From a virus (taxonomy: Duplodnaviria > Heunggongvirae > Uroviricota > Caudoviricetes): 64,000 nt of DNA. Made by a program: the position numbers and the translations under genes. Position 1 is the stretch's first letter, and each line of letters opens with the position of its first letter. The stretch covers positions 12,476 to 76,475 of the IMG/VR virus record IMGVR_UViG_3300035034_001740; one strand, 5' to 3'. The notes under the pieces were generated by a model. It was not told the origin of the DNA and ran no database searches. It worked only from the letters and a program-made list of their open reading frames with translations. This document shows positions 3,990 to 22,321 of the stretch, in pieces.

Positions 3990-5444
3990 ATGAATAAAGA
4001 TACACAAACAATAATTAACCCATTCGATATCATCGATGATACCGATTCCTATAAATGTACACACCACATCGGACTCAATAAAGAGGCCGTAACTGATTAC
4101 CTTGAGGCCCGTGTGGGTGCTCAATTTCCCGAAACCGTAGTTTACGGTGTAAGTGAAATGCTTGAGGGACTCGCTAACGTTCGTATCACACAAGATATGA
4201 TTGAAGAAGAGGCGATCCGCTGTAAGTTTCACTTTTTTGGAAATGAGAAGCTTTTTAACCGAGAAATGTGGGAGTATATCGTCAATGAATTTGACGGAAA
4301 ACTACCCGTTCGAATTTCATCGGTCGACGAGGGAACTGTTGTTCCAGTTGACAACGTAATGCTTCAGATTGAGAACCTTGGAGGCAAGTTAACTGCTGCA
4401 CTTCCAGGTCACCTTGAAACTTTCTTCCTACGAGTATGGTATCCAATGACGGTTGCCACAAAGAGTCGCGAGGTTAAGAAGATTCTTAAGAGGTATCTCG
4501 ACCTAACATCTGACGATGCCAGTCTGTTGCCATTCATGCTTCACGACTTCGGTGCTCGTGGCACAACTAACCAACAAGCTGCTGCTACAGGTGGAAGTGC
4601 TCACCTTATCAACTTCCTTGGAACTGACACGAAGGTTGCTATGACACACATCAATCGTTTGTTCGGTGATTCTTACGAAGGTCTTGGTTACAGCATCTTC
4701 GCTACGGAACACAGTCTTATGACAAGTGAGGGTGAAGACGGTGAACTCAAAGTTATCCGCCGATGCATGGAACGTGTTGGTATCGGAATGAAGAGTTTCG
4801 TTGCCGATAGTTACGATTACTACCGTCACGTTGCTCAATATGTTGGTCAAGACTTGAAGGAATTTATTCTTGACCAGTATAAAGAGGCTAAGACGGTCGG
4901 CATTCCTAATAAGTACGTCATTCGTCCTGACAGTTGTACTCCAGAACACCAAACTCCAGAGGAATTGGTTGTATGGACTTACGAACAACTTGAACGTGAC
5001 TATGGTGTTACTGTCAACAGTAAGGGTTATAAGGAATTGCACCCTGCTGTCGGAGTAATCTGGGGTGACGGAATCGACATTGACGGAATCGAAAAGATTC
5101 TTGAGGCGTTGACGAATGCTGGTTACGCTACCACAACTCAAGTCTTCGGAATGGGAGGTGGATTGCTCCAGAAAGTAAATCGTGATACGATGCGGTTCGC
5201 CTTCAAATGTTGTGCTCAAATGGTTGATGGTGTGTGGGGAGACGTTCAAAAGAATCCTCTTGATACTTCTAAGAAGAGTAAGGCTGGACGACAAGCTCTC
5301 ACGAAGGATGACGCCGGAAACTTCATCACAGTTCGTGAAGACGAACTCGGTGATCGTGAAAACTTCTTAAAGGTCCACTTTGAATGTGGTGAGATTCTAA
5401 TCAAGCCAACGTTCGCTCAGATTCGTGAACGTTGTGCTTTATAA
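3990..5444 (+). CDS. nadV: Nicotinamide phosphoribosyltransferase (NAMPT)
   Basis: N-terminal DDTDSYKCTHH resembles the NAMPT DSYK motif; ~480 aa; good SD (aaggaaaac) upstream. Confidence 0.88.
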   Translation: MNKDTQTIINPFDIIDDTDSYKCTHHIGLNKEAVTDYLEARVGAQFPETVVYGVSEMLEGLANVRITQDMIEEEAIRCKFHFFGNEKLFNREMWEYIVNEFDGKLPVRISSVDEGTVVPVDNVMLQIENLGGKLTAALPGHLETFFLRVWYPMTVATKSREVKKILKRYLDLTSDDASLLPFMLHDFGARGTTNQQAAATGGSAHLINFLGTDTKVAMTHINRLFGDSYEGLGYSIFATEHSLMTSEGEDGELKVIRRCMERVGIGMKSFVADSYDYYRHVAQYVGQDLKEFILDQYKEAKTVGIPNKYVIRPDSCTPEHQTPEELVVWTYEQLERDYGVTVNSKGYKELHPAVGVIWGDGIDIDGIEKILEALTNAGYATTTQVFGMGGGLLQKVNRDTMRFAFKCCAQMVDGVWGDVQKNPLDTSKKSKAGRQALTKDDAGNFITVREDELGDRENFLKVHFECGEILIKPTFAQIRERCAL

Positions 5445-6440
5445 CTCATTATAGAACTTCCAGCCGTCGTTTTGATAAGATGTAATGTCTTTCGGAACGA
5501 CGGCTTTTTTACGTCCATCTAACCACATCCATTTTCGACCTTTGTTAGTTTTGCACAACCTCCCACGTTGCCATCCATTGTTTAGAAATTTTGATAGTTC
5601 TGTTGGGGGGATTCGTTTTTCCCGTGTTCCGTTGTGTATTGCTATTTTGGAATTTGATTTATCCTTACGATACATACCAATCACCCACTTATCGTTTAAA
5701 AACGAATTGAGTTCCGACTTTGATACCATTTTATTACTACAATTTTTATTTATCCACACCGTATCCTTAGTTGAACTGGACAGACTACCTAATACCCAAC
5801 CACTCTCTATATACTGAGGAATATCATCAACCCTCACGTTCGTTTCAACCACACCGTTATTTATTCGCTTCATACCTTTCGTCATACTGGAATAAAATTC
5901 CGACGAAATTGAGGTTCCTCGTTCCCACCCTTCGGATATGTATATGTCAAGTTCTTCCGCCGTCACTCTACGGTCTTTCCCGTTCTTGGTAATATATTTT
6001 AACCCGGCAGTTCGTTTCACTGTCATCAAATGTTTTACTTCCCCTGATTGGATACGTGGGTCGTCTTTATCAATCCTAAAACAATCACCATCTTCGCCAA
6101 TAACCATCCGCGTTTGTTTAAGATATTCGGAATACTTCACACGATACAGTTCATACAATCTGCTCTTGGATAAATTTTCACTGCGGCCGTATCCGTTGTC
6201 GTTCATCATATAATTCACGGCGCATAACAAATTCCCCTCAGACGGAAACATCCGAGTTAGTAACACATGGCATATAAAATGTTCTCTTGCTGTGAGTAAT
6301 ACCAAGTTTGATTCTGAGTTGTCACCTCCCAAACACCTCGGTATTATATGATGATTTTCGTAATATTCACCTGTGAGTTTGTTCCGGTTCAATGACTTTG
6401 AATTGTCTATGATATTGTAGTATATTTTTTTATAATTCAT
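5439..6440 (-). CDS. Free-standing HNH homing endonuclease with 5 C-terminal tandem ~25-aa repeats (x-E-L-x-x-[FY]-x-x-x-G-W-x-x-G)
   Basis: ENHHIIPRCLGGDNSESNLVLLTAREHFICH is an HNH_3 motif; repeats end ...EGWERG, ...ESGWVLG, ...DKWVIG, ...NGWQRG, ...DGWKFY; only large minus-strand gene in a plus-strand block, wedged between nadV and prs. Confidence 0.75.
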   Translation of the reverse strand: MNYKKIYYNIIDNSKSLNRNKLTGEYYENHHIIPRCLGGDNSESNLVLLTAREHFICHVLLTRMFPSEGNLLCAVNYMMNDNGYGRSENLSKSRLYELYRVKYSEYLKQTRMVIGEDGDCFRIDKDDPRIQSGEVKHLMTVKRTAGLKYITKNGKDRRVTAEELDIYISEGWERGTSISSEFYSSMTKGMKRINNGVVETNVRVDDIPQYIESGWVLGSLSSSTKDTVWINKNCSNKMVSKSELNSFLNDKWVIGMYRKDKSNSKIAIHNGTREKRIPPTELSKFLNNGWQRGRLCKTNKGRKWMWLDGRKKAVVPKDITSYQNDGWKFYNEL

Positions 6441-10494: not shown

Positions 10495-11412
10495 ATGGCT
10501 GATAAAAACAATGATACGAAGTCTGATAAGAAATCTGTAAAAGATATTCAGAGTGAACTATTATATTATGATGATGTAGCATTAATTGCTGATTATTATG
10601 ACGGAGATTCAAGAAGCGAATTGGATACCTCCGTAACCTTTGGTTCTCACACGTTTAAGGTTCCTATCACTCCTGCTAATATGAAATGTAGTATTGATTT
10701 CGACTTAGCGGAACAACTGAGTAACTCTGGATATTTTTATGTACTTCATAGATTTTATGATTACGAAAGTATCAAGAATTGGATTCGGAAGAGCCAAGAT
10801 GGATTGGAAATCATATCGATTTCCTTGGGTGTACAACAGAAAGACTATGACTTCATAGACTGGTTAACGGAAATGGGTTCCCCGTTGGTAGATTATATTA
10901 CAATCGATGTTGCCCACGGTCATAGTAAGCCTGTAAAAGACATATTGAGTCATATCACTACTAAGTTCGGTGACAATGAAATAAAACCTTTTATTATTGC
11001 TGGAAATGTAATGACACGGAAGGCCGTTGAAGACCTAAACGATTGGGGTGCTGATGCTGTTAAGGTTGGTATTGGTCAAGGGAGAGTTTGTTTTCTCGGA
11101 GATACTATGGTAAATACGGTAGACGGTAGTTTGAAAATAAAAGATGTTAGAGTTGGTGACAGGGTAATAACACACACAGGAGATTATAAGGTCGTATTGG
11201 ATACAATAGAAAAGTATTCCAATGATATGATTAGTGTGAACGGAAATGTATGTACAAAGAATCACAAGTTTTATGTGATCTACAAATCCGATATTGACTC
11301 TGTAACTGATGAAAACATTCACGATTTCGCTTTTTGGTTGGAAGCCCATAAGATAACAGATGAGCATCTTTTGATAACAGTAGACCAACACCCACTCCAA
11401 AATACTCCGTGA
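10495..11412 (+). CDS. guaC-like: IMPDH/GMP reductase family protein, N-terminal fragment (N-extein 10495-11088) fused to a split-intein N-half (11089-11409)
   Basis: N-extein has ITPANM, TIDVAHGHS and IIAGNV...GADAVKVGIGQGRV, aligning with GuaC up to the catalytic Cys; then intein block A CFLGDTMVNTVDG and block B CTKNHKF; stop after ~107 intein residues. Confidence 0.8.
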   Translation: MADKNNDTKSDKKSVKDIQSELLYYDDVALIADYYDGDSRSELDTSVTFGSHTFKVPITPANMKCSIDFDLAEQLSNSGYFYVLHRFYDYESIKNWIRKSQDGLEIISISLGVQQKDYDFIDWLTEMGSPLVDYITIDVAHGHSKPVKDILSHITTKFGDNEIKPFIIAGNVMTRKAVEDLNDWGADAVKVGIGQGRVCFLGDTMVNTVDGSLKIKDVRVGDRVITHTGDYKVVLDTIEKYSNDMISVNGNVCTKNHKFYVIYKSDIDSVTDENIHDFAFWLEAHKITDEHLLITVDQHPLQNTP

Positions 11413-11643
11413 TTCTCAGTTATAATCAATATGACTTCGGATTCTGAGGTGAAAGAATTTTATACTGGGAGTGTGATATACGAACAGTAAATTTTAAAGT
11501 ACTAGATGAAATAGAAAATGAAATACAAATTTATAGAACCGGAAATAAGTAAAGTTGAATATGAGTTTGATATTCCTGTATACGATCTAGAGATTGAGAG
11601 TGACCATTCATACTGTGTCGGTGAAAATATCATAGCACATAAC
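11089..11643 (+). mobile_element. Split mini-intein in the IMPDH/GMPR gene (IntN 11089-11412, 105-nt gap, IntC 11518-11643)
   Basis: Blocks A and B in IntN; IntC MKYKFIEPEISKVEYEFDIPVYDLEIESDHSYCVGENIIAHN ends in HN followed by +1 Cys (CSTKLKTG matches the GuaC catalytic loop). Confidence 0.8.
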
Positions 11644-12360
11644 TGCAGCACTAAACTCAAAACAGGTTTCACGTGTCCAATGTTTTCTTGTGTTAAACGG
11701 TGTTCTACTCCGATCCATGACGATTTGGAATCCGTTCGGAGTGAGATTCAGACTACAATCTATAATGAAATTAAGCGTGAGTTACACAATCGCCATCCGT
11801 ATATGCCAGTGCGGATATCGGTTGATACCGTATACTCCACCTTACACTATATTAACAATTTGTTGGTTCCTGTGTCGGGTGAGCCAGACAAAATCGACCC
11901 CGACACCATAAAAACGGCAATACAGGTTGAACTACAACGGAGAGTCGATGAAATTACATCAAATAGAATTCCAATCATCGCTGACGGTGGAATGTCTGAG
12001 AACGGAGACATTGTTAAAGCTATTCGTGCTGGAGCAAGTATGACAATGGCTGGAGGTATGTTTGCTGCTTGTGAAGACTCTCCTGCTGAGAATGTGTATG
12101 AGAGCCGTGAAACTACCGAAGGTGTGGATGTGGATATACCACATAAAATAATTAAAAAAAGGTATTATGGTTCTGCCAGCGAAGAGAATAAGGGGCATAA
12201 GAAAAATGTGGAAGGTTTCTTAACAGAACTCAATTGTAACGGATTTACGTATTTAGAAAAACTCGAAGAAATCCAAGGCGATTTACAAAGCGCTATAAGT
12301 TACGCAGGCGGCTCTGGGTTGGATAATCTCAGAGAAGTTGATTACTATATTCTCCGTTAG
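11518..12360 (+). CDS. guaC-like: Split-intein C-half (42 aa) fused to the IMPDH/GMP reductase C-terminal fragment (C-extein 11644-12360)
   Basis: IntC blocks F and G (VYDLEIESDHSYCVGENIIAHN), then CSTKLKTGF...ADGGMSENGDIVKAIRAGASMTMAGGMFA, aligning with the GuaC C-half. Confidence 0.8.
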   Translation: MKYKFIEPEISKVEYEFDIPVYDLEIESDHSYCVGENIIAHNCSTKLKTGFTCPMFSCVKRCSTPIHDDLESVRSEIQTTIYNEIKRELHNRHPYMPVRISVDTVYSTLHYINNLLVPVSGEPDKIDPDTIKTAIQVELQRRVDEITSNRIPIIADGGMSENGDIVKAIRAGASMTMAGGMFAACEDSPAENVYESRETTEGVDVDIPHKIIKKRYYGSASEENKGHKKNVEGFLTELNCNGFTYLEKLEEIQGDLQSAISYAGGSGLDNLREVDYYILR

Positions 12361-12486
12361 ATTTAACATATAAGTATGGCAGAATATTGTTTTTTTGGAG
12401 TGTAAAAACAAATAAAAAATAAAGGTTGTTTATTGGATATATCCTTCATATATACAATATTTAAACTTACCTTTAATTATAAATTG

Positions 12487-12504
12487 ACACACGGACGTTA
12501 GTGT
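12487..12504 (+). promoter_or_regulatory. ACAC-N8-GTGT palindrome (NrdR-box-like) overlapping a TTGACA -35 element upstream of nrdJ
   Basis: ACACACGGACGTTAGTGT has the ACAC...GTGT ends of the 16-bp NrdR box; TTGACA at 12484-12489. Confidence 0.3.
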
Positions 12505-12541
12505 GTTTTTGTTATCTAACATTAGAAAAAAAAAAGAAATT

Positions 12542-13174
12542 ATGTCAATCAAAGCCTTACAAGAATATACAATTTACGCTAAATACGCAAAATACAACGT
12601 TGAAGAGAAACGAAGAGAAACATGGGATGAACAGATAGACAGAGTGTTCGACATGCATGAACGAAGATTTACAGACGAATTGGAAACGATACCAGAATTT
12701 AGAAAAAATTTTGATTTCGCAAAGCAACAAGTATTAAAACGAAGGGTATTAGGATCACAAAGAGCACTACAGTTTGGTGGTCCGTCAATTGAGAAACACG
12801 AGGCTAAAATGTTTAACTGTATCGTGTCATACTGTGACCGTGAACGTTTTTTCCAAGAGTGTATGTATCTTTTGTTGTGTTTTCACCCAGACACTGAGGT
12901 TAAAGTCCGAGGTGGAGTGAAAAAAATAAGCGAACTTACATGCAATGATGAAATACTAGCACATGTGGAAGATTCGGGTGAGTTTGTATGGGTTAAACCC
13001 AGTAATGTATTCGAAACCCCCTCAAAAGGAAAACGAAAATTAAAGATAACGTTCGAAGACGATACAGAGGTAAAATGTACCGAAGACCATCAGTTTTTTA
13101 CTACGAATCGTGGTTGGGTAGAAGCTAAAGATTTATCAGATGAGGATGATGTAAAGTTTTTTGATAATAAGTAG
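12542..13174 (+). CDS. nrdJ: Class II (B12-dependent) ribonucleotide reductase fragment 1 (extein 12542-12877) + split-intein N-half 1 (12878-13171)
   Basis: YAKYAKY...RRETWDEQIDRVF is NrdJ-like; intein block A CFHPDTEVKVRGG, block B KCTEDHQFFT; start taken at the second Met, downstream of the promoter (the ORF begins at 12503). Confidence 0.8.
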   Translation: MSIKALQEYTIYAKYAKYNVEEKRRETWDEQIDRVFDMHERRFTDELETIPEFRKNFDFAKQQVLKRRVLGSQRALQFGGPSIEKHEAKMFNCIVSYCDRERFFQECMYLLLCFHPDTEVKVRGGVKKISELTCNDEILAHVEDSGEFVWVKPSNVFETPSKGKRKLKITFEDDTEVKCTEDHQFFTTNRGWVEAKDLSDEDDVKFFDNK

Positions 13175-13441
13175 TTGTTTGTCGTCGATGATACATTACA
13201 TCACGTAGACTTTTACATACTTGAAATTGATACTGTTGTAGATTTGACTACTGACACATGAATCCACTAAAATATAATAAGAATGGATATCGACAACGGA
13301 ATTTAAACAATTATTGCAAGAGAAAAAATATTTATGAGAATTAAGAAAAAAGAATATATTGAAGATGACATTAACTACTGGGATATAACAGTACCGGAAC
13401 ATCACAACTTCGTATTGGCTAATGGGGCAGTGGTTCATAAC
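12878..13441 (+). mobile_element. nrdJ split mini-intein 1 (IntN 12878-13174, gap, IntC 13334-13441)
   Basis: IntC MRIKKKEYIEDDINYWDITVPEHHNFVLANGAVVHN (blocks F/G) then +1 Cys of CGCGTGFS (the RNR GGGxGFS motif region). Confidence 0.8.
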
Positions 13442-14494
13442 TGCGGATGTGGAACAGGCTTCTCCGTTCAAAAGTGTCATGTGTCGAAATTGCCTAAGAT
13501 AACACCACGAACAAAAGGAAAAAAGAAATTTGTTATTCCAGATAACATTGAAGGTTGGGCTGATGCTATCGGTTTGGCAATCAACTCATTCTTTGACGGT
13601 TCATCTGTGTTTCCGGAGAGTAATGGGTATGAAATGGAATTTGATTATTCCAAAATACGACTTGAGGGTTCATTAATATCAGGAGGATTTAAAGCGCCTG
13701 GTCCAGAAGGGCTGAAGGCATCTATCTCCAATATTGTTAATCTTATCGAACGTCGATTGAATTCTCCTGATTTTCATACCGACGGATTTGCTGGTCAGTT
13801 GCGGCCTATTGATGCTTATGACGTTGTGATGCACATGTCGGATGCTGTATTGAGTGGTGGGGTTCGTCGTAGTGCTACTATTTGTTTGTTCTCTCCGGAG
13901 GATACTGAGATGTTAAACGCTAAAACAGGCAATTGGCTTGAAACGAATCCTCAACGTGGTCGTTCGAACAACTCTGTGTTATTGATTCGTGACAAAACAA
14001 CCAAAGAAGCCTTTGAGAAAGTCATGGAGTCTGTCAAAGAATTTGGTGAGCCAGGTTTCGTATGGGCAGAAGACGAAGGTATCCTATATAACCCTTGTTT
14101 AGTGGGTGACACATTGGTAGAGACGGATTGTGGATTAGTCTCAATTCGTGAAATCGTAGAAGACCCATCCAAGTATAAGGTGTTATCATATAACGATTCC
14201 GGTGACTTGGTGTATGAGACTGTAAAGGCCGGCGTTAAAACCCGTGAAAATGCTAACGTTATTAAACTGGAGTTTGATGATGACACTGTGTTAGAATTGA
14301 CATCTGACCACCGAGTGTATACTAACAATCGAGGGTATGTGAATGCCTCTAATTTGACCACTGATGATGAGGTTGTTTCCGTTGATTTTGATAGTGAGTC
14401 GTATTCATCGACGGTTGAGGTAACTGAAGAAGTGTATGTCGATCAATCTAAATGGACTACTCGGGTAATTGAAAATATGAAACCGAGCTGTTAG
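13334..14494 (+). CDS. nrdJ: Intein-1 C-half + NrdJ fragment 2 (extein 13442-14095) + split-intein N-half 2 (14096-14491)
   Basis: IntC blocks F/G; the extein ends ...EDEGILYNP; IntN2 block A CLVGDTLVETDCG, block B LTSDHRVYT. Confidence 0.85.
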   Translation: MRIKKKEYIEDDINYWDITVPEHHNFVLANGAVVHNCGCGTGFSVQKCHVSKLPKITPRTKGKKKFVIPDNIEGWADAIGLAINSFFDGSSVFPESNGYEMEFDYSKIRLEGSLISGGFKAPGPEGLKASISNIVNLIERRLNSPDFHTDGFAGQLRPIDAYDVVMHMSDAVLSGGVRRSATICLFSPEDTEMLNAKTGNWLETNPQRGRSNNSVLLIRDKTTKEAFEKVMESVKEFGEPGFVWAEDEGILYNPCLVGDTLVETDCGLVSIREIVEDPSKYKVLSYNDSGDLVYETVKAGVKTRENANVIKLEFDDDTVLELTSDHRVYTNNRGYVNASNLTTDDEVVSVDFDSESYSSTVEVTEEVYVDQSKWTTRVIENMKPSC

Positions 14495-14701
14495 AAACTG
14501 AATATGGTCTGAGTGCTGTGATTGTGGATGACATCACAACTTATTGTGGGGCCAACTATGAAAACGAACTTAAAAAAAATGGAAATTAATAAAAAAATTA
14601 AAAAAATAAAACGAATCTCAATTATATCAAATCAAGATGTATACGATATAACGGTAAACAATACCCATAACTTTTTTGCCAATGGGACTTTAGTTCATAA
14701 C
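14096..14701 (+). mobile_element. nrdJ split mini-intein 2 (IntN 14096-14494, gap, IntC ending 14701); inserted at the NPC(V)E radical-Cys motif
   Basis: IntC ...ISIISNQDVYDITVNNTHNFFANGTLVHN then +1 Cys; the spliced product reads ILYNP-CVEIGF, i.e. the N-P-C-x-E thiyl-radical motif. Confidence 0.8.
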
Positions 14702-15490
14702 TGTGTTGAGATTGGATTTTATCCGTCATTGGATATTAACATGTTATCCGATGCGAAGTTGGCTAAGTTCAAACAGAGCCCGGAATACAAAGACGGAAAG
14801 AATTTGTATAACGGTTGGCAAGCATGTAATCTCTGTGAGATAAACATGAAGAAGGTTAAAACTGCTGAAGACTTTAGACAAGTATGTCGTGCTGGTGCTT
14901 TCATAGGAACGCTTCAAGCTGATTATACTAAATTCAAATATTTAGGATTAACCTCCCAGTATCTTGTCGAACAAGAAGCGTTGATTGGTGTATCAATGAC
15001 AGGTATGATGGATTCTCCTGAAATTGCATTTGATCCAAAGGTTCAACGTGACGGAGCAAAACAGGTTCTTGATATGAATGCTATTACAGCAAAACATATT
15101 GGAATCAACGTTGCCGCTCGTGGAACCTGTGTAAAGCCGGCGGGGTGCCTTGATACAAATCAAGAAATTAAAACGGTTGATGGTAATAAAACTATATTAT
15201 CCATTTTCGAAGACCAAGGGTTTACATTGAAAGAGCTACAGTCCATGGATGGTGAGTGGCTCGACTTAAAAAGTCCCGTTCAGATTTACAATGAGAATAA
15301 TGAATTAGAAAATATATCTAAATTATATGTCAATGGCAACATAGAGGTATATGAGATTCCTATGGAAGATGGCAGTGTAATCAAATGCACACCATGGCAC
15401 AAATTTAAATTGGTGAATGGCGATTGGAAGCGTGCTGATGAACTAGATGAAGGTGACGATATTTTAAATTTTGATATTGTGGGGAACTGA
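14558..15490 (+). CDS. nrdJ: Intein-2 C-half + NrdJ fragment 3 (extein 14702-15145) + split-intein N-half 3 (15146-15487)
   Basis: Extein contains ACNLCEI and ends ...ARGTCVKPAG; IntN3 block A CLDTNQEIKTVDG, block B KCTPWHKF; start ambiguous among 14522, 14558 and 14579 (the 14579 Met gives a 40-aa IntC). Confidence 0.8.
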   Translation: MKTNLKKMEINKKIKKIKRISIISNQDVYDITVNNTHNFFANGTLVHNCVEIGFYPSLDINMLSDAKLAKFKQSPEYKDGKNLYNGWQACNLCEINMKKVKTAEDFRQVCRAGAFIGTLQADYTKFKYLGLTSQYLVEQEALIGVSMTGMMDSPEIAFDPKVQRDGAKQVLDMNAITAKHIGINVAARGTCVKPAGCLDTNQEIKTVDGNKTILSIFEDQGFTLKELQSMDGEWLDLKSPVQIYNENNELENISKLYVNGNIEVYEIPMEDGSVIKCTPWHKFKLVNGDWKRADELDEGDDILNFDIVGN

Positions 15491-15643
15491 TATAAAAGAA
15501 ACAGTATTTAGAAAATTATTAGAAGGAAAAATATGAAAGTAATAAAAACACCAAAAAAATCTGATGGGAAGGTTTTAACTTTAGATTTAGAAACAGAAAA
15601 CACACATACATATCAGCTAGCCAATGGGTGTGTAAGTCATAAT
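15146..15643 (+). mobile_element. nrdJ split mini-intein 3 (IntN 15146-15490, 42-nt gap, IntC 15533-15643); +1 residue Thr
   Basis: IntC MKVIKTPKKSDGKVLTLDLETENTHTYQLANGCVSHN; the spliced product reads VKPAG-TTSCVLGSSSGIHP, matching the RNR PTG(T/S)IS...SSGIEP motif. Confidence 0.75.
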
Positions 15644-16630
15644 ACAACTTCATGTGTATTGGGTTCTTCAAGTGGAATACACCCTCATCACGCCCGTAGA
15701 TACATGAGAAGAGTTCAAGCCAACAAGTTGGAATTTCCTGTTCAAGAGTTTATGAGACAGAATCCTTCGGCGGTAGCTGAATCTGTATGGAGCACAAATG
15801 GAACTGATATGGTTATCTCTTTCTTGTGTGAGGTTCCTGTTGGTTCTGTTATCAAAAATCAACTTGGGGCGATTGACTTGTTGGACAAGGTAAAGTTAAC
15901 TCAACAAAATTGGGTAGAGGCTGGAACACGTATTGAGAAATGTACAAAGTCTTACACAAGACACAATGTATCAAATACTATCACAGTTCAATTAGATGAA
16001 TGGGATGATTTAACAGATTATATTTACAAGAACCGTAAGTGGTTCGCTGGTATTTCATTGTTGCCTGCTAGTGGTGATAAAGACTATCCACAGGCTCCAT
16101 TTACAACTGTGTTTACACCGTCTGAAATTGTTAAAGAGTATGGCGACGCTTCTGCTTTCGCTAGTGGTTTGATTGTCGCTGGCCTTCTTGCTTTCGATGA
16201 TAACCTTTGGAAAGCGTGTGATACTGTTTTGGGTATTGGCGAAGATATTGCTGATAATCTTGATGTTCCTGCATATCCAGTCCGTCCTGTTAAAAATGGT
16301 TATACACCATCACAATACAATAAGAAGTTGATAAAATTCTCACAGCAGTTAGAACAGTATCATAAAGATCAAGATACTTACGATACATGGTTCGATAAAA
16401 AGGATTGGATACGAAGAGCTGTTCAGTTCGCCGAAAGATATTTTAATGGTGATTTCAAAAGAATGACATATTGTTTGAAAGATGTTAACAACTGGAAAAC
16501 TTGGTGTGACCTTAAACGAGAATATACAGAAATCGATTGGTCAACTGTTCTCGAAGAGTCTGAATTCTATCAGAATGTAGATGAAACTGCGGGCGCGGCC
16601 TGTAGTGGTGGAAAATGTGATATTTTTTGA
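15533..16630 (+). CDS. nrdJ: Intein-3 C-half + NrdJ fragment 4 (extein 15644-16630, C-terminal ~329 aa)
   Basis: IntC blocks F/G, then TTSCVLGSSSGIHPHH...; good SD (aaggaaaaat) before the ATG. Confidence 0.85.
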   Translation: MKVIKTPKKSDGKVLTLDLETENTHTYQLANGCVSHNTTSCVLGSSSGIHPHHARRYMRRVQANKLEFPVQEFMRQNPSAVAESVWSTNGTDMVISFLCEVPVGSVIKNQLGAIDLLDKVKLTQQNWVEAGTRIEKCTKSYTRHNVSNTITVQLDEWDDLTDYIYKNRKWFAGISLLPASGDKDYPQAPFTTVFTPSEIVKEYGDASAFASGLIVAGLLAFDDNLWKACDTVLGIGEDIADNLDVPAYPVRPVKNGYTPSQYNKKLIKFSQQLEQYHKDQDTYDTWFDKKDWIRRAVQFAERYFNGDFKRMTYCLKDVNNWKTWCDLKREYTEIDWSTVLEESEFYQNVDETAGAACSGGKCDIF

Positions 16631-16648: not shown

Positions 16649-17197
16649 ATGAAATATAAGAACATGGCAACTGGCCGAGGCGACAGTGGATATACAGATA
16701 TGTCTATGGGTGGACGTATGGCTAAAGACGACCCCCGATGTGAAGCTGTAGGTAGACTTGATTCGTTTCATGCTTCTCTTGGAATGTCACATCATTTTTT
16801 ATCATCCTCCGATAAGGTTGATATCAAAAAAATTCAACATACGTTGTTTAAGTTGATGGGCGAAATTCCATGTGCCGAAGATAACAAAGTTAAGTATTTT
16901 GATAAATATGGAGGCGTAACTCAAAATGATGTTGACACGTTGGAAGAATACCGATTGAATATTGCAATGGAGTTGGATAAAAAGTATGGTGGTCAGTCAG
17001 ACTGGACATTATATGGTGAAGATGGTTTTAACTCATCTATATTAACTAAAGCATCTACAGATTTAAGAGCTGCTGAGAGAAGTATAGTTGAGTTAAGGAA
17101 CCTTGGATATGTTATTCGTGACGAAATCTTAGCGTTTATAAATCGTTTAGACAAAACGTTGTATGCTCTATCAAAGAAATACAAAGAAGAATCTTAA
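16649..17197 (+). CDS. ATP:cob(I)alamin adenosyltransferase, PduO/MMAB type
   Basis: ATGRGDSGYTDMSMGGRMAKDDPRCEAVGRLD matches the PduO N-terminal TKTGDKGxT...G.R motif; directly downstream of the B12-dependent RNR. Confidence 0.75.
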   Translation: MKYKNMATGRGDSGYTDMSMGGRMAKDDPRCEAVGRLDSFHASLGMSHHFLSSSDKVDIKKIQHTLFKLMGEIPCAEDNKVKYFDKYGGVTQNDVDTLEEYRLNIAMELDKKYGGQSDWTLYGEDGFNSSILTKASTDLRAAERSIVELRNLGYVIRDEILAFINRLDKTLYALSKKYKEES

Positions 17198-17280: not shown

Positions 17281-19200
17281 ATGTCGATTATAAAATCAAT
17301 TGTAGAACAATATAAACAATCTAAAGATGAAGAGTATTCATTGGAAGATTACATTGAATTGTGTAAGACGAATAAGTTAGCTTATGCTTCACCCGCTGAG
17401 AGAGTTTTAGACGCTATAGGTGATCCTGAACTTATCGATACTCAGAAAGACCCAACGATGGGAAGAATCTTTCAGAATAGAACAATTAAGGTATATCCAG
17501 CGTTCAAAGATTTTTATGGGCTCGAAGAGGTCATTGAACAAATCGTTGGTTATTTTACTCACGCTGCTCAAGGGTTGGAAGAAAAGAAACAAGTGTTTTA
17601 TCTTCTTGGACCTGTCGGTGGTGGTAAATCGTCTTTGGCTGAACGGATCAAGGAATTGGTTGAGGTTCACCCAATTTACGTTCTAAAGGCTGGTGATACA
17701 ATTTCTCCTGTTTTCGAATCTCCGCTTTCTTTGTTCAATGAGTCTCACTCTGAGGAACTTGGGATTCCAAAGAATCGACTAAAGACAATTCTTTCGCCTT
17801 GGGCAATCAAACGTCTTGACGAATATGGTGGAGACATTTCAAAGTTTTCCGTTGTTCGTATGATGCCTTCTAAACTTCGTCAACGTGGTGTTGTTAAGAC
17901 GGAACCAGGCGATGATAACAACCAAGATATCAGTTCGTTGGTTGGTAAGGTTGACCTTCGTAAGTTGGATGAACTTAGTCAAAATGATCCAGATGCTTAC
18001 TCATTCAGTGGTGCTCTTTGTCGTGGTAATCAAGGTGTTATGGAGTTCGTGGAAATGTTCAAGGCTCCAATCAAAACTCTTCACCCATTGTTGACTGCTA
18101 CACAAGAAGGTAACTATGTTGGTTCGGAAGAAATTGGACCTATTCCTTTCGACGGTGTTGTTATGGCTCACTCCAATGAATCTGAATGGAAGACTTTTAG
18201 AAACAACAAGAATAATGAGGCGTTCTTAGACCGTATCTATCTTGTAAAGGTTCCATACTCTGTTCGTTACGACGAAGAGAAGAAGATTTATGAGAAGTTG
18301 CTTAGAGAATCTAATCTCTTCGACGCTCCTTGTGCTCCAAAGACACTTGAGATTCTATCCAAGTTCTCTGTATTAACACGATTGGTTGAACATGAGAATT
18401 CAGACTTGTTTACCAAGTTACGAATCTATAATGGCGAAAACTTAAAAGATGTTAAGCCAGACGCTAAGTCGGTTCAAGAGTATAAAGACTATGCTGGTCT
18501 TGATGAAGGCATGAGTGGGTTCTCCACACGAGCAGCTTTCAAAGTATTATCAAAGACATTCAATCATGATGCTAACGAGATTGCTGCTGACCCAATTCAC
18601 CTGATGTATGTGTTGGAAGAGGCTGTTAAGAAAGAACAGTATGGTTCTGAGAAAGAAGATGAATATATCAACCTTATTAAGAACACTTTGACTTCTAAGT
18701 ATGCTGAGGAAATCGGCAAGGAAATTCAAAAGGCTTACCTTGAATCATATAGTGATTACGGACAGAACATCTTTGAACGGTATGTTAACTACGCTGACCA
18801 CTGGGTTCAAGATCAGGAATACAAAGACCACGATACAGGTCAACTCATTTCCAAACACGCTCTTGAAGCTGAGCTTGAGAAGTTGGAGAAGCCTGCTGGA
18901 ATCGGCAACGTTCAAGACTTCCGACATGAGATTGTAAACTTTGTTCTTCGATCTAAGTCAAAGAATGGTGGTAAGTTCCCACGTTGGGATTCATTCCAAA
19001 AGATGAAGGATGTAATCGAACACAAGATGTTCGCTTCAACAGAAGAACTGCTTCCTGTTATCTCATTCGACTCTAAGAAGTCTTCCAAGGATACAAAGAA
19101 ACACAATGACTTCGTATCACGTATGGAGAAGAACGGTTACACTCTACGTCAAATCAAGAGAGTCGTTGACTTCTACATGAGATACTCAAAGAGTAACTAA
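17281..19200 (+). CDS. prkA: PrkA family serine protein kinase (AAA+ ATPase domain)
   Basis: Walker A LLGPVGGGKSSLAERIKEL; ~640 aa; overall PrkA/YeaG architecture. Confidence 0.88.
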   Translation: MSIIKSIVEQYKQSKDEEYSLEDYIELCKTNKLAYASPAERVLDAIGDPELIDTQKDPTMGRIFQNRTIKVYPAFKDFYGLEEVIEQIVGYFTHAAQGLEEKKQVFYLLGPVGGGKSSLAERIKELVEVHPIYVLKAGDTISPVFESPLSLFNESHSEELGIPKNRLKTILSPWAIKRLDEYGGDISKFSVVRMMPSKLRQRGVVKTEPGDDNNQDISSLVGKVDLRKLDELSQNDPDAYSFSGALCRGNQGVMEFVEMFKAPIKTLHPLLTATQEGNYVGSEEIGPIPFDGVVMAHSNESEWKTFRNNKNNEAFLDRIYLVKVPYSVRYDEEKKIYEKLLRESNLFDAPCAPKTLEILSKFSVLTRLVEHENSDLFTKLRIYNGENLKDVKPDAKSVQEYKDYAGLDEGMSGFSTRAAFKVLSKTFNHDANEIAADPIHLMYVLEEAVKKEQYGSEKEDEYINLIKNTLTSKYAEEIGKEIQKAYLESYSDYGQNIFERYVNYADHWVQDQEYKDHDTGQLISKHALEAELEKLEKPAGIGNVQDFRHEIVNFVLRSKSKNGGKFPRWDSFQKMKDVIEHKMFASTEELLPVISFDSKKSSKDTKKHNDFVSRMEKNGYTLRQIKRVVDFYMRYSKSN

Positions 19201-19209
19201 TTCAATCAT

Positions 19210-19238
19210 CCCCACAAGAGAACCTTGTGGGGGTTTTT
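19210..19238 (+). terminator. Rho-independent terminator (ccccacaag/cttgtgggg stem, then TTTTT)
   Basis: 9-bp perfect stem right after the prkA stop. Confidence 0.6.
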
Positions 19239-19251
19239 ACTAAATTAATTT

Positions 19252-19449
19252 ATGCCAAGACAAGAAAATAAAAAGCAGTTGGTGGTGAAGATGGAACGTG
19301 AACCTGTTAACGGTGAAATATTTGATGTTCTGAAAATCGATGGTCAAGAGATTGTCGCATTTCATGTAACGAATATTGATAGGTTAGGATTGGAACACAA
19401 TAATAAAACTATGGCGGATGCTGTAGTAGACTACCTCACAAAGAAATAA
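19252..19449 (+). CDS. Hypothetical protein
   Basis: 65-aa ORF between prkA and yeaH. Confidence 0.35.
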   Translation: MPRQENKKQLVVKMEREPVNGEIFDVLKIDGQEIVAFHVTNIDRLGLEHNNKTMADAVVDYLTKK

Positions 19450-19451
19450 TT

Positions 19452-20735
19452 ATGGCTCGTATTATAGACAGACGTAAAAATTTGAAAGGGAAATCGACAA
19501 GTAATAGACAACGTTTTATTAAGCGTGCTAAAGAAGCTATTCGCGAATCCCTCAAAGATAAGATTAGAGGTCGTAAGGTAACTGACACGTCAACGGGTGA
19601 AAACGTTATAATCCCAAAAGAAGGTATCAAAGAACCTACGTTTGGTCACGACTGGGAAACTGGTAAGAAGAATGATGTTCGTCCAGGAAACAAGACGTAT
19701 AAAAAAGGTGATACAATTCGTAGGCCTCCAGAAAACGCCGGTGGTGGTGGAAAACAAGGTTCTAATGGTGATGAAATTTCTGAGGATGAATTTGAGTTTG
19801 CTTTAAGTAAAGAAGAATTTTATGACTTGTTCTTTGAAGATTTGGAACTTCCAAATTTACAAGATAAGGAAATGAAGGAAATAAAAAACTTCAAGAGTGT
19901 CAGAGAAGGCTTCCGTAAAGATGGAAGTATATCAAACCTCGACAAGTTGCAGTCTTATAAGAATTCGTTGGGTAGACGAATTGCTCTTAAACGACCCTCA
20001 AAGAAAGTTCTTGATAAGTTGGAAGTTGATCTGATCGAAGCTGAGGATGAAGAAGATATCAAGACACTCGAAGAGAAAATCATGAAGATGAAAAAGAAGT
20101 TCCGTCAGGTTCCTTTCTTTGATGAAGTTGACATGAGATTCCGTAACTACAATCTCAAACCACAACCTAATGACAAGGCTGTTATGTTTTGTGTAATGGA
20201 TGTGTCTGCTTCGATGGGTGAACACGAAAAGGGTTTGTCAAAACGATTCTTCATGTTACTTTATATGTTCCTTGAACGTAAGTATGAACATACTGATATC
20301 ATATTCATTAGACACCACACAGCGGCGTCTGAGTGTGATGAAGAGACATTTTTCCATTCAAAGGAAACAGGTGGAACGGTTGTTAGTTCAGCGTTTAAGT
20401 TATTGAAAGAAATTCAACGTGAAAGATACCCTACGAATGAATGGAATATCTACATCGCTCAATGTTCTGATGGTGATAACTTCGGAGACGATACCGCTGA
20501 GGTTATTAACATTCTTCAAAACGATTTGCTTCCGATTACACAATACATGGCATACATTCAAACAGAATATCATAGATCGAGGTATTCGGATATGTATTTC
20601 AATTCTGATTATGGGTTGTGGTGCCATTATGATGTGTTACGAGATACCGCTAGTAACTTCGATATGAAACAGGTGAATCAATCTCCTGATATATGGAAGG
20701 TGTTCATTGAACTATTCAAGAAACAAGATAGATAA
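19452..20735 (+). CDS. yeaH: YeaH/YhbH family protein (DUF444/UPF0229, vWA-like)
   Basis: N-terminus MARIIDRRKNLKGKSTSNRQRFIKRAKEAIRE matches the YeaH/YhbH signature; 427 aa. Confidence 0.85.
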   Translation: MARIIDRRKNLKGKSTSNRQRFIKRAKEAIRESLKDKIRGRKVTDTSTGENVIIPKEGIKEPTFGHDWETGKKNDVRPGNKTYKKGDTIRRPPENAGGGGKQGSNGDEISEDEFEFALSKEEFYDLFFEDLELPNLQDKEMKEIKNFKSVREGFRKDGSISNLDKLQSYKNSLGRRIALKRPSKKVLDKLEVDLIEAEDEEDIKTLEEKIMKMKKKFRQVPFFDEVDMRFRNYNLKPQPNDKAVMFCVMDVSASMGEHEKGLSKRFFMLLYMFLERKYEHTDIIFIRHHTAASECDEETFFHSKETGGTVVSSAFKLLKEIQRERYPTNEWNIYIAQCSDGDNFGDDTAEVINILQNDLLPITQYMAYIQTEYHRSRYSDMYFNSDYGLWCHYDVLRDTASNFDMKQVNQSPDIWKVFIELFKKQDR

Positions 20736-20740
20736 AAGTT

Positions 20741-22321
20741 ATGCCAAGAAAGTCAAAGTTGTTATATAATAGTGCCGAATGGGATTTTGACGCGATTCGT
20801 AGAGTATACGATGAATGTGACAAAATCGCTAAAGAGGAACTAAAGTTAGATATATACGAAAATCAGATTGAAATGATTTCATCTGAACAGATGCTTGATG
20901 CTTATACATCGGTGGGAATGCCTATCATGTATAATCATTGGAGCTTCGGAAAACATTTCGTCCAAGAGTCTACAAAATATAAGAGAGGTCAAATGGGATT
21001 GGCATACGAAATCGTCATTAACTCAGACCCTTGTATTTCGTATCTCATGGAAGAGAACACCATGACCATGCAGACATTGGTTATTGCTCACGCTGCTTTC
21101 GGTCATAACTATTTCTTCAAGAACAATTATCTGTTTAAAGAATGGACTGATGCTAGTGGCATCATACCGTATCTTTCATTCGCTAAACGTTACATCTCTG
21201 AGTGTGAAGAGAAGTATGGTGAACGTGAAGTTGAACTAATTCTCAACAGTTGTCATGCGTTGAAGAACCATGGCGTCAACAAATACAAAAGGCCGCCTCA
21301 GCTTTCAGTGGGCGAAGAGAAGTTACAACAACAAGAACGTCAAGACTTTTTGGATTCTTCTGTAAATCACTTGTGGAGAAGTTTCGACTCTACAACAAGA
21401 GACGGAGTGAACCCTAATACTTTTCCTGAGAAAGAGGAAGAGAACATTTTGTACTTCATGGAGAAGCATGCACCTAACCTTGAACCTTGGCAACGAGAAA
21501 TCATTCGTATCGTTCGTAAGGTAGCTCAATACTTTTATCCCCAACCTCAAACAAAGACCATGAATGAAGGGTGTGCTACATACGTTCACTACTACATCAT
21601 GAATCGTTTGTATGATAAGGGTAAAATCTCAGACGGTAACATGAAAGAGTTCTTAATCTCACACACCAATGTTGTTCATCAACCTGATTATGATGATGTA
21701 GTTATCTATAAAGACGAAAACGGCGAAGAGAAGTCATACAGTCGTTACAATGGTATTAATCCATATGCGTTAGGATTTGATATGTTGAGAGACATGGAAC
21801 GTATGTGTAAGAATCCAACGGAGGAAGATAAATACTATATGCCTGAGGTCGCTGGTACTGATTGGTTGGAAACGTTTCATTATTCGATGCAGAACTTTCG
21901 TGACGAAAGTTTCATCAGACAATACCTTAGTCCTACTATGGTTAGAAAGTGGAAGATGTTTGTTATGAATGATGACGCTGATGAAAGTTTATATAAGATA
22001 TCTGCTATCCAAGATCAAACAGGGTTCAACAATGTTAGGAACGCATTAGCAGAACAACACATGATAACTAATTACTATCCTGAGATTAAGATTACTAATG
22101 TCGATATTAAAGGTGATAGGTCAATGTTATTGACTCACCAATCACATGACGGTGTCGAAATCGGTAAAGACGATATAGAAGACATGATGAAACACTTGTA
22201 TCGTCTATGGGGTTATAACATTAAGATTGAAAGTTATAACTCAGAAGACGGAAGTATTATCGAAGAGTTTGAAACTGACTTTTCGGATGTGGAAGAAGAG
22301 GATGATGAATTTCCGTTTTAA
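20741..22321 (+). CDS. spoVR: SpoVR family protein
   Basis: ENQIEMISSEQMLDAYTSVGMPIMYNHWSFGKHF matches the conserved SpoVR N-domain; acidic C-terminal tail. Confidence 0.85.
   Translation: MPRKSKLLYNSAEWDFDAIRRVYDECDKIAKEELKLDIYENQIEMISSEQMLDAYTSVGMPIMYNHWSFGKHFVQESTKYKRGQMGLAYEIVINSDPCISYLMEENTMTMQTLVIAHAAFGHNYFFKNNYLFKEWTDASGIIPYLSFAKRYISECEEKYGEREVELILNSCHALKNHGVNKYKRPPQLSVGEEKLQQQERQDFLDSSVNHLWRSFDSTTRDGVNPNTFPEKEEENILYFMEKHAPNLEPWQREIIRIVRKVAQYFYPQPQTKTMNEGCATYVHYYIMNRLYDKGKISDGNMKEFLISHTNVVHQPDYDDVVIYKDENGEEKSYSRYNGINPYALGFDMLRDMERMCKNPTEEDKYYMPEVAGTDWLETFHYSMQNFRDESFIRQYLSPTMVRKWKMFVMNDDADESLYKISAIQDQTGFNNVRNALAEQHMITNYYPEIKITNVDIKGDRSMLLTHQSHDGVEIGKDDIEDMMKHLYRLWGYNIKIESYNSEDGSIIEEFETDFSDVEEEDDEFPF

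Follow-up and report, generated by a model that had tools for sequence, protein, structure and literature searches.

The nrdJ locus and its reductase

The subject of this study is nrdJ, a gene for a class II ribonucleotide reductase (RNR), in 64,000 nucleotides of viral DNA (Caudoviricetes; IMG/VR record IMGVR_UViG_3300035034_001740, positions 12,476 to 76,475), a stretch that was analysed as a whole and is called the window below. The gene lies on the plus strand in four consecutive open reading frames (ORFs) at 12503/12542-13174, 13334-14494, 14522/14558/14579-15490 and 15533-16630 (alternative starts are separated by slashes), with gaps of 159 nt, of 27, 63 or 84 nt according to the start codon chosen, and of 42 nt between them. 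Every ORF carries one piece of the reductase (an extein), and at each break the upstream ORF ends in the N-terminal half (IntN) and the downstream ORF begins with the C-terminal half (IntC) of a split mini-intein. With residues numbered along the spliced protein, the elements are:

Extein 1, 12542..12877, + strand: residues 1-112, ending ...ECMYLLL; invariant Cys93 (MFNC); colinear with residues 1-112 of the homologue P0001
IntN1, 12878..13171, + strand: 98 aa; Cys1 in CFHPDTEV, block B CTEDH; then TAG at 13172-13174
Gap 1, 13175..13333, + strand: 159 nt; four in-frame stops including the terminator of ORF1
IntC1, 13334..13441, + strand: 36 aa, MRIKKK...HHNFVLANGAVVHN; the +1 residue is Cys113, invariant in the family
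Extein 2, 13442..14095, + strand: residues 113-330, CGCGTGFSV...GILYNP; matches residues 218-381 of PDB 1L1L
IntN2, 14096..14491, + strand: 132 aa; Cys1 in CLVGDTLV, block B TSDH; then TAG
Gap 2, 14495-14578, + strand: spanned by the endonuclease scar 14476..14577
IntC2, 14579..14701, + strand: 41 aa (48 aa from ATG 14558), ending ...THNFFANGTLVHN; the +1 residue is Cys331 of NPCxE
Extein 3, 14702..15145, + strand: residues 331-478, CVEIGF...NLCEI...CVKPAG
IntN3, 15146..15487, + strand: 114 aa; Cys1 in CLDTNQEI, block B CTPWH; then TGA
Gap 3, 15491..15532, + strand: 42 nt; second in-frame stop TAG; AAGGA 6 nt before ATG 15533
IntC3, 15533..15643, + strand: 37 aa, MKVIKTPKK...THTYQLANGCVSHN; the +1 residue is Thr479
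Extein 4, 15644..16630, + strand: residues 479-806 and stop, TTSCVLGSSSGIHP...ACSGGKCDIF; C-terminal Cys798 and Cys803 invariant

A first-pass annotation of this DNA had described one NrdJ protein in four ORFs with these gaps, and both the ORF coordinates and all the motifs that it quoted were found in the translations; as it had stated, each IntN ends at a stop codon and each IntC starts at an ATG at all three junctions. Its ORFs stand, and its start of the locus at 12503 has to be moved: nrdJ almost certainly begins at ATG 12542, and the GTG at 12503 was discarded, because the N-termini of homologues read MSIKAL and an indel separates the two candidate starts (the poly-A run at 12524-12533, just 5' of the nrdJ start, has ten residues, A10, in the window against nine, A9, in two other assemblies, and nothing else differs over about 6 kb). 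For IntC2, the ATG at 14579 (MEINKK) is the most likely start by analogy with MEATARK, MENFTRK and METRTK of relatives and MEAKTY of NrdJ-1.

Nine stops in the nrdJ frame (four, three and two in the successive gaps) interrupt the gene, and they are a mixture of TAG, TGA and TAA. The exact ORF2 protein is also present on contigs of two further public assemblies, ENA ERZ27315374 and Logan SRR5216652, and the DNA of both equals that of the window over 6.2-13.4 kb, save for the A9/A10 run and two distant mismatches. The stops of all three breaks are real and the genetic code is the standard one, since the stops recur in three assemblies and all three kinds of stop codon terminate long ORFs of the window (TAA 38, TGA 12, TAG 7). 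An assembly error, which the first-pass annotation itself had named as a possible objection, was looked at and failed, the same stops being present in the two other assemblies.

Read-through or recoding of the stops is ruled out by their number and their three kinds, all of which are used as terminators in the window. Introns in the gaps are ruled out as well; a search of Rfam at E up to 1 gave only a sub-threshold sRNA match, outside the locus. No stable RNA fold or regulatory hairpin was found in any gap (fold z-scores of -0.8 to +0.2).

Joining the exteins in silico, with cuts at Cys1 and after His-Asn, gives pieces of 112, 218, 148 and 328 aa and a protein of 806 aa, in agreement with the product of about 800 aa that had been anticipated for the concatenated exteins. 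This protein is colinear over its full length with the uninterrupted P0001, itself 806 aa long (73% identity, 100% coverage), with no insertion or deletion at LLL^CGCG, NP^CVEI and PAG^TTSC (^ marks the junction), where P0001 reads LLLCGCGTGFS, NPCVEIGF and KPAGTTSCVLG. The concatenated exteins retrieve more than 8000 relatives, thousands of them at 55-64% identity from end to end. The spliced protein is matched by TIGR02505 (RTPR) at E 6.6e-48 and, with phmmer, finds the Lactobacillus leichmannii RTPR 1L1L at E 6.6e-15. The Ribonuc_red_lgC domain (PF02867), which spans junction 3, passes its cut-off (26.0 vs 23.9) after in-silico splicing, and in no single ORF.

A confident AlphaFold2 model of the spliced sequence (pLDDT 87, pTM 0.87) has 1L1L_A as its best Foldseek match (E 1.3e-22, TM 0.66, 749 columns), followed by the Thermotoga maritima NrdJ and then by class I enzymes, so that among ten-stranded RNR barrels its fold is nearest to that of RTPR. 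Among 43 intein-free homologues, N329, P330, C331 and E333 of the NPCxE motif are invariant, and so are C93, C372, C798 and C803 and the +1 residues Cys113 and Cys331. By its motif Cys331 is presumed to be the thiyl-radical Cys. We take these Cys residues to correspond to C408, C119/C419 and C731/C736 of RTPR on the basis of motif and established knowledge rather than of a residue-level superposition. We conclude that the spliced protein is a divergent RTPR-like class II RNR of a phage clade and not an equivalog of RTPR.

Three split inteins and the traces of endonuclease genes

All three pairs of intein halves possess a full catalytic set: Cys1, TEDH and HN followed by Cys in intein 1, Cys1, TSDH and HN followed by Cys in intein 2, and Cys1, TPWH and HN followed by Thr in intein 3. 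The block B motifs read CTEDHQF, TSDHRVYT and CTPWHKF in the order of the junctions, block A of the IntN at junction 3 reads CLDTNQEIKTVDG, and the C-halves end in HHNFVLANGAVVHN, THNFFANGTLVHN and THTYQLANGCVSHN before the +1 Cys, Cys and Thr. Cys1, TxxH, HN and the +1 nucleophile are invariant in family alignments that span 40-70% identity (with TxDH as block B in that of intein 2); the IntC3 homologues in L004, L006, L008, L010 and P0020 retain SHN followed by T or S.

The Pfam family Intein_splicing (PF14890) matches ORFs 1-3 with E values of 5e-7, 2e-11 and 3e-18 (2.8e-18 for ORF3), which answers the proposal to check the locus against intein hidden Markov models; ORF1 scores 30 bits, less than the cut-off of 35.8 bits, yet phmmer found 1265 homologues of IntN1. 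Compared with solved inteins, the fused halves of intein 2 match NrdJ-1 (PDB 8UBS) at E 6e-20, those of intein 1 match NrdJ-1, DnaX and gp41-1 at E of about 1e-6, and those of intein 3 match Npu DnaE at E 3.5e-10, with the break exactly at the natural split point of Npu. The four split inteins of the window, i.e. the three in nrdJ and one in the IMPDH-type gene upstream, share only 25-33% identity between their IntN halves and at most 48% between their IntC halves, and no further intein was found in the 64-kb window. Judged by homology, catalytic residues, separate ORFs with the break at the endonuclease-insertion loop, and a colinear host protein, each pair in nrdJ can be assigned to the class-1 split inteins, and the three are different from one another, as had been claimed.

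The position of intein 2 also agrees with the first-pass annotation, which had placed it at the thiyl-radical Cys: it immediately precedes the Cys of the invariant NPCxE. By sequence it qualifies as a homologue of NrdJ-1 and not as the same allele, because it is inserted at NP^C with Cys as the +1 residue, whereas NrdJ-1 is inserted at NPC^S with Ser at +1. Among relatives the NP^C position is shared by the window, L004 and L010, and NPC^C is found in P0041, P0085, P0309 and P0331. Intein 1 is inserted at LLL^CGxG, and some members of its family sit two residues further on (LLLxG^(C/T)GxG); intein 3 is inserted at KPAG^TTS, with a variant two residues downstream (KPSGxA^S). Homologous inteins thus occupy sites that are shifted by one or two residues between lineages, with a +1 residue that varies between Cys, Ser and Thr (the window compared with L010, L012, L008, P0256 and P0309).

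The absence of an endonuclease ORF between the halves, which the first-pass annotation had pointed out, holds for the 159-, 84- and 42-nt gaps alike. It is, however, a derived state, as gaps 1 and 2 are scarred:

Gap 1 endonuclease remnant, about 13207-13281, + strand: 3' part of a gene for a Vsr-like free-standing homing endonuclease
Site-2 endonuclease scar, 14476..14577, + strand: last ~33 codons, in another frame, YETELLETEYGLSAVIVDDITTYCGANYENELKK; spans gap 2

The scar at site 2 was found by tblastn against the whole window with E values of 3e-5 (L004), 7e-5 to 1e-4 (L006) and 1e-4 (L013). The closest relative with IntN2, L013 (71% identity), has an empty site 1 and a 248-aa endonuclease gene between the halves of intein 2, where 120 nt of the window correspond to 772 nt. 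In gap 1, the DNA is 71% identical over 77 nt (E 1.2e-5) to the gene for a 435-aa Vsr-like endonuclease in L094, and its translation, FYILEIDTVVDLTTDT followed by a stop, compares with FYLPESNTIIEVYGDYW in that endonuclease, a TGG codon having been replaced by TGA. Gap 3 holds no detectable endonuclease remnant, its 42 nt being too short to tell. Intact endonuclease genes, PD-(D/E)xK/Vsr-like or NUMOD3-bearing like those of Dassa et al., occupy these gaps in L004, L006, L008, L010-L013 and L094.

The best match to a sigma-70-like promoter in the region (CTGACA, 16 nt, TATAAT; 11/12) falls at 13251-13278 in gap 1, inside the endonuclease scar and 56 nt upstream of the start of IntC1, which is a hint only. 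Promoter-like sites are not enriched (18 vs 26.7 expected), and neither are internal terminators.

As remnants of genes that are intact in relatives persist in gaps 1 and 2, the locus is a fractured gene as defined by Dassa et al. 2009, one whose endonucleases have been lost, and we interpret the window as having reached step III of their model, the loss of the endonuclease, at no fewer than two sites within a single gene. In such a history nrdJ would have been invaded at three sites by mini-inteins, which either were split already or were split later by free-standing genes for Vsr-like homing endonucleases; these genes would then have decayed or been deleted, leaving the split inteins fixed under purifying selection.

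All four nrdJ ORFs share one reading frame, the gaps being multiples of 3, whereas those of relatives differ. The chance of such agreement is about 1/27 and we treat it as a coincidence. It could be a sign that the breaks arose when contiguous inteins acquired nonsense point mutations, but this was not relied on, because at site 2 a deletion has clearly removed an endonuclease gene and the halves in relatives lie in different frames.

Relatives show the same inteins in several states. The L003 contig, on which both nrdJ (P0001) and the IMPDH gene are unbroken, is an allele in which the sites of all four split inteins are empty. Contiguous mini-inteins occur in P0256 (a version of intein 1) and P0020 (a version of intein 3), and split versions of intein 3 occur with an endonuclease gene in L004 and without one in L008 and L010. 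P0020 (...YWRYS-MRVIRTP...) and P0256 (...THLS-MKLKSIKK...) keep a Met exactly where the IntC of the split version starts, which hints either at a re-fusion of split halves after the loss of the endonuclease or at a tiny step between contiguous and split forms.

Fractures of this gene are recurrent in metagenomes. Proteins of the type extein 1 plus IntN1 form about ten clusters at 50% identity, pieces of the type IntC1-extein 2-IntN2 form five clusters (P0272, P0273, P0259, P0309 and P0331), and middle pieces of the type IntC2-extein 3-IntN3 form at least 16 further clusters at 90% identity, which are 38-58% identical to that of the window. L004-L007 have two breaks and two endonuclease genes, and sites 1 and 2 are split in L011 and L012. 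L010 is triply fractured at, or within two residues of, the three sites of the window and has ORFs between the halves at sites 1 and 2, and L008 is triply fractured with a different first site, GGIRR^S. About 11 of 80 sampled IMG/VR loci are fractured, two of them doubly and none triply. The 50,697 deposited phage genomes contain no middle piece IntC2-extein 3-IntN3 at 80% coverage or more and no DNA resembling the locus. A search of full-text literature, from whose coverage most subscription-journal papers are absent, turned up neither a gene that is naturally split at three places nor a three-fold break without any nuclease genes. The triple fracture, which with no endonuclease ORF in between had been called at least unusual, is less exceptional than this suggests, as double and triple fractures of nrdJ recur in metagenomes.

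The sites available to inteins in this family are more numerous than those of the window. The first site of L008 (3452-5225), GGIRR^SA(C/T)I, lies inside extein 2, and P0322 has a contiguous intein there; counting also MYN^C (P0037, P0101) and WQF^C (P0066), at least six insertion regions are found in the RNR family. In L006 (8022-8500), and at the equivalent place in L007, only 13 extein residues after IntC3 (...SASGIH, then a stop) are followed by about 300 nt with a 58-aa ORF and then by PHHARRY, and this extra break has neither an intein signature nor a match to an Rfam intron.

Probable function of the fractured gene and rival explanations

Synonymous sites are saturated in comparisons of the window with L013 or L003, so that dN/dS is not computable and the proportions of nonsynonymous and synonymous differences (pN and pS) are given instead. 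The saturated pS is 0.67-0.88 overall, and pN in the exteins is 0.13-0.23. IntN2 has a pN of 0.21 vs a pS of 0.81 (window vs L013) and IntC2 a pN of 0.13 vs a pS of 0.67, and by this measure the two halves of intein 2 are as constrained as the exteins. The C-terminal end of IntN2 extends into an additional tail about 35 aa long (14396-14491, or from about 14390 with EVTEEVYVDQSKWTTRVIE...; motif EVTE..Y.DQSKW..R.IE), the peptide of which is conserved in the window, L013, L004 and L006 (pN 0.14-0.31 vs pS 0.45-0.80). The tail is missing from NrdJ-1 and more distant relatives, and it has outlived the endonuclease gene.

We consider it highly probable, from this constraint and the architecture of the locus, that the four ORFs constitute a functional fractured nrdJ of a large uncultured phage, the pieces of which are joined by trans-splicing. 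Active trans-splicing is the best explanation because the intein halves are constrained and catalytically intact, because of the charge polarity of the halves, with acidic IntN tails (net -7, -15 and -14) and basic IntC heads, and because of the activity of NrdJ-1 and IMPDH-1. [quoted passage not shown]

If this reading is correct, each ORF would be translated separately, and the three IntN/IntC pairs would associate by their acidic IntN tails and basic IntC heads, each pair folding into a HINT domain. Class-1 trans-splicing would then begin with an N-S acyl shift at Cys1, continue with transfer to the +1 Cys, Cys or Thr by trans-thioesterification or esterification, and end with Asn cyclisation, and the ligated exteins would form one 806-aa monomeric, adenosylcobalamin-dependent RTPR-like RNR. 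Neither a single fragment nor a complex that has not been spliced should be active, because the inteins interrupt the invariant motifs LLL^CGxGxGFS, NP^CxE and KPAG^TTSC. The divergence of the three pairs suggests that they are mutually orthogonal. A gene for a PduO-type ATP:cob(I)alamin adenosyltransferase lies directly downstream on the plus strand (16649-17197; Pfam PF01923, E 1.9e-24, above the cut-off), and the nrdJ of L003 is likewise neighboured by an adenosyltransferase gene. This enzyme would supply adenosylcobalamin, the cofactor of class II RNRs, and it is from this gene context that we infer the cofactor dependence.

Several observations weigh against this picture. The TIGR02505 score of 163 bits is far under the equivalog cut-off of 340 bits, and the enzyme must therefore be a divergent relative of the characterised RTPR. 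IntC1 and IntC2 are identical at 16/33 residues and the charge polarity is alike in all three pairs, so that some cross-pairing is possible. Thr, as in intein 3, is a less common +1 nucleophile. Shine-Dalgarno-like sequences are weak before ORFs 1-3, AAGGA being present before ORF4 only. Finally, the visible genome amounts to 64 kb, and a second, intact RNR elsewhere could relax the need for this one.

The last two of these points would also suit a decaying pseudogene. Contiguous inteins, or inteins with endonucleases, would then have broken down together with those endonucleases, the locus would yield no active enzyme and the phage would use an RNR of its host or another one; visibly decayed endonuclease DNA with stops does lie in the gaps, and some split phage RNR genes have been read as degenerating by Dwivedi et al. 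(PMC3653736). Against this, the 806 extein and 458-465 intein codons are free of stops and frameshifts and the catalytic residues are intact in the enzyme and in all six intein halves. Moreover, pN is far below pS in intein halves and exteins alike, every IntC ORF retains its ATG at a position conserved in relatives, and the split architecture persists across lineages that are only 40-60% identical. We regard a pseudogene as improbable.

Alternatively, the fragments might assemble non-covalently, with the intein halves serving as dimerisation modules that are not excised. A precedent for activity without ligation is the nrdA of Aeh1, which according to its citation in PMC2677866 and PMC3653736 is split by a homing endonuclease without an intein, its two parts together still making an active enzyme. 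If excision were needless, Cys1, TxxH, HN and the +1 Cys or Thr would not remain invariant, and three HINT domains of 134-173 aa would be left in invariant motifs, one of them right before the Cys of NPCxE, which is hard to fit with the compact RTPR fold; the homologue NrdJ-1, besides, splices efficiently. Such an assembly is very improbable in our view.

That the breaks do not exist at the protein level, be it through assembly or sequencing error, recoding or read-through, or introns, is scarcely credible: the common frame of the four ORFs and the contiguous versions of inteins 1 and 3 would suit it, but nine in-frame stops of three kinds, identical sequence in three assemblies, gaps with no Rfam intron or stable RNA structure, and relatives with ORFs in different frames and whole endonuclease genes between them all stand against it.

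Instead of being just a frozen remnant of selfish elements, the three-fold split might be maintained as useful to the phage, either as a post-translational gate on the synthesis of deoxynucleoside triphosphates (dNTPs) or as immunity, with the tail of IntN2 as a part thereof, and this we hold to be doubtful. As a gate, it would act through sites 1 and 2, which use invariant Cys residues (the second being the presumed thiyl-radical Cys), and assembly would depend on redox conditions and on the four polypeptides being made in equal molar amounts. If it confers immunity, sites that are occupied and scarred would be uncuttable by the homing endonucleases of co-infecting relatives.

Neighbouring genes and comparison with known systems

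Just upstream of nrdJ, a gene of the IMPDH/GMP-reductase type (10495-12360, + strand) is fractured by the fourth split intein of the window, likewise with no endonuclease gene:

IMPDH-type split intein, + strand: IntN 11089-11409, a gap of 105 nt, IntC 11518-11643

Spliced in silico, the gene reads VGIGQGRV^CSTKLKTGF and is colinear with its 404-aa counterpart in L003, which is unbroken. The +1 Cys is the catalytic Cys of the family. Its split intein is presumably IMPDH-1-like. Beyond the adenosyltransferase gene, at 17281-22321 (+ strand), come genes for a PrkA-type AAA protein kinase, for a DUF444 protein and for SpoVR, and the L003 contig is syntenic, with IMPDH, nrdJ, adenosyltransferase, PrkA, DUF444 and SpoVR. 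The trio PrkA/DUF444/SpoVR occurs in stress and sporulation operons of bacteria, and its presence in a phage is unusual. At 5439-6440 (- strand), between NAMPT and PRPP-synthetase genes and within a patch of higher GC content and neutral skew (4001-6000), lies one of the very few minus-strand ORFs; with weak matches to HNH endonucleases and a NUMOD3-like similarity to an endonuclease of L011 it probably encodes a free-standing homing endonuclease.

Fractured genes with a single split are already known, one of them lacking an endonuclease (Dassa et al. 2009, PMC2677866). What distinguishes the present locus is the presence of three non-allelic split inteins in one protein, all of whose endonuclease genes are lost while scars remain, and a shifted NrdJ-1-like intein with a catalytic Cys as nucleophile together with two uncharacterised families of split inteins. 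An essential phage gene can be fractured by split inteins at least three times in one protein and still be under purifying selection, and among relatives the same inteins are found in every state: empty site, contiguous mini-intein, split with an endonuclease and split without one. The finding overturns nothing established, and its interest lies in intein biology and in protein engineering, for which it offers three naturally co-evolved split inteins, or four if the IMPDH-type gene is counted, that have to function alongside one another in the same cytoplasm. Among them are a relative of the ultra-fast NrdJ-1 with Cys at +1 and members of two uncharacterised families, whose junctions have Cys and Thr at +1.

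The link to the fractured NrdJ and IMPDH genes of Dassa et al. 2009, drawn already in the first-pass annotation, is borne out by the homology of intein 2 with NrdJ-1 and by the split IMPDH-type gene upstream. NrdJ-1/NrdJ-2 (PMC2677866; PDB 8UBS) are likewise cases in which the gene for a phage-like class II RNR is broken at its thiyl-radical loop by a split intein, and a free-standing Vsr-like endonuclease lies between the halves of NrdJ-1 as it does in L013, L004 and L006, the close relatives of the window. The NrdJ-1 site is one residue after the thiyl Cys and its +1 residue is an obligate Ser, whereas intein 2 of the window sits one residue upstream and has the Cys of NPCxE itself at +1. 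The window further differs in that a scar about 100 nt long is all that is left of the endonuclease gene, in the conserved tail of about 35 aa on IntN2, and in the two further split inteins of the same gene. Of the features by which Dassa et al. recognised fractured genes, the locus has a conserved gene of DNA metabolism, a split intein and location on one strand, and the gaps in the window contain neither an intact endonuclease gene (GIY-YIG or Vsr-like) between the halves nor a regulatory hairpin or late-promoter motif.

The closest parallel to the loss of the endonuclease is gp41-7 (Dassa et al. 2009, step III), in which the halves of a split intein are adjacent with no endonuclease gene, and this was read as a secondary loss. 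There the host gene is a helicase with a single break, whereas in the window the loss is documented by remnants at two of three sites, and no upstream hairpin was detected.

As regards the number of inteins, the four-intein RNR gene of Trichodesmium erythraeum (Liu et al. 2003, cited by PMC2874743) similarly holds several non-allelic inteins in one gene. The three inteins of the window differ in being all split, and four polypeptides must meet. Those of Trichodesmium are reportedly contiguous (cis-splicing) and are accompanied by group II introns on the chromosome of a bacterium. Npu/Ssp DnaE, on the other hand, is a naturally split class-1 intein with the canonical split at the endonuclease-insertion loop, the same position as in intein 3, but its halves lie at distant loci, with one split per gene, and both the host protein and the site are different.

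The ordered ligation of several fragments by orthogonal split inteins, among them NrdJ-1 and IMPDH-1, has been achieved by Pinto et al. 2020 (PMC7090010). Their systems were designed, and were tested in vitro or in E. coli, whereas the window holds a natural operon whose orthogonality is suggested by divergence, and its split inteins are direct candidates for orthogonal multi-fragment ligation.

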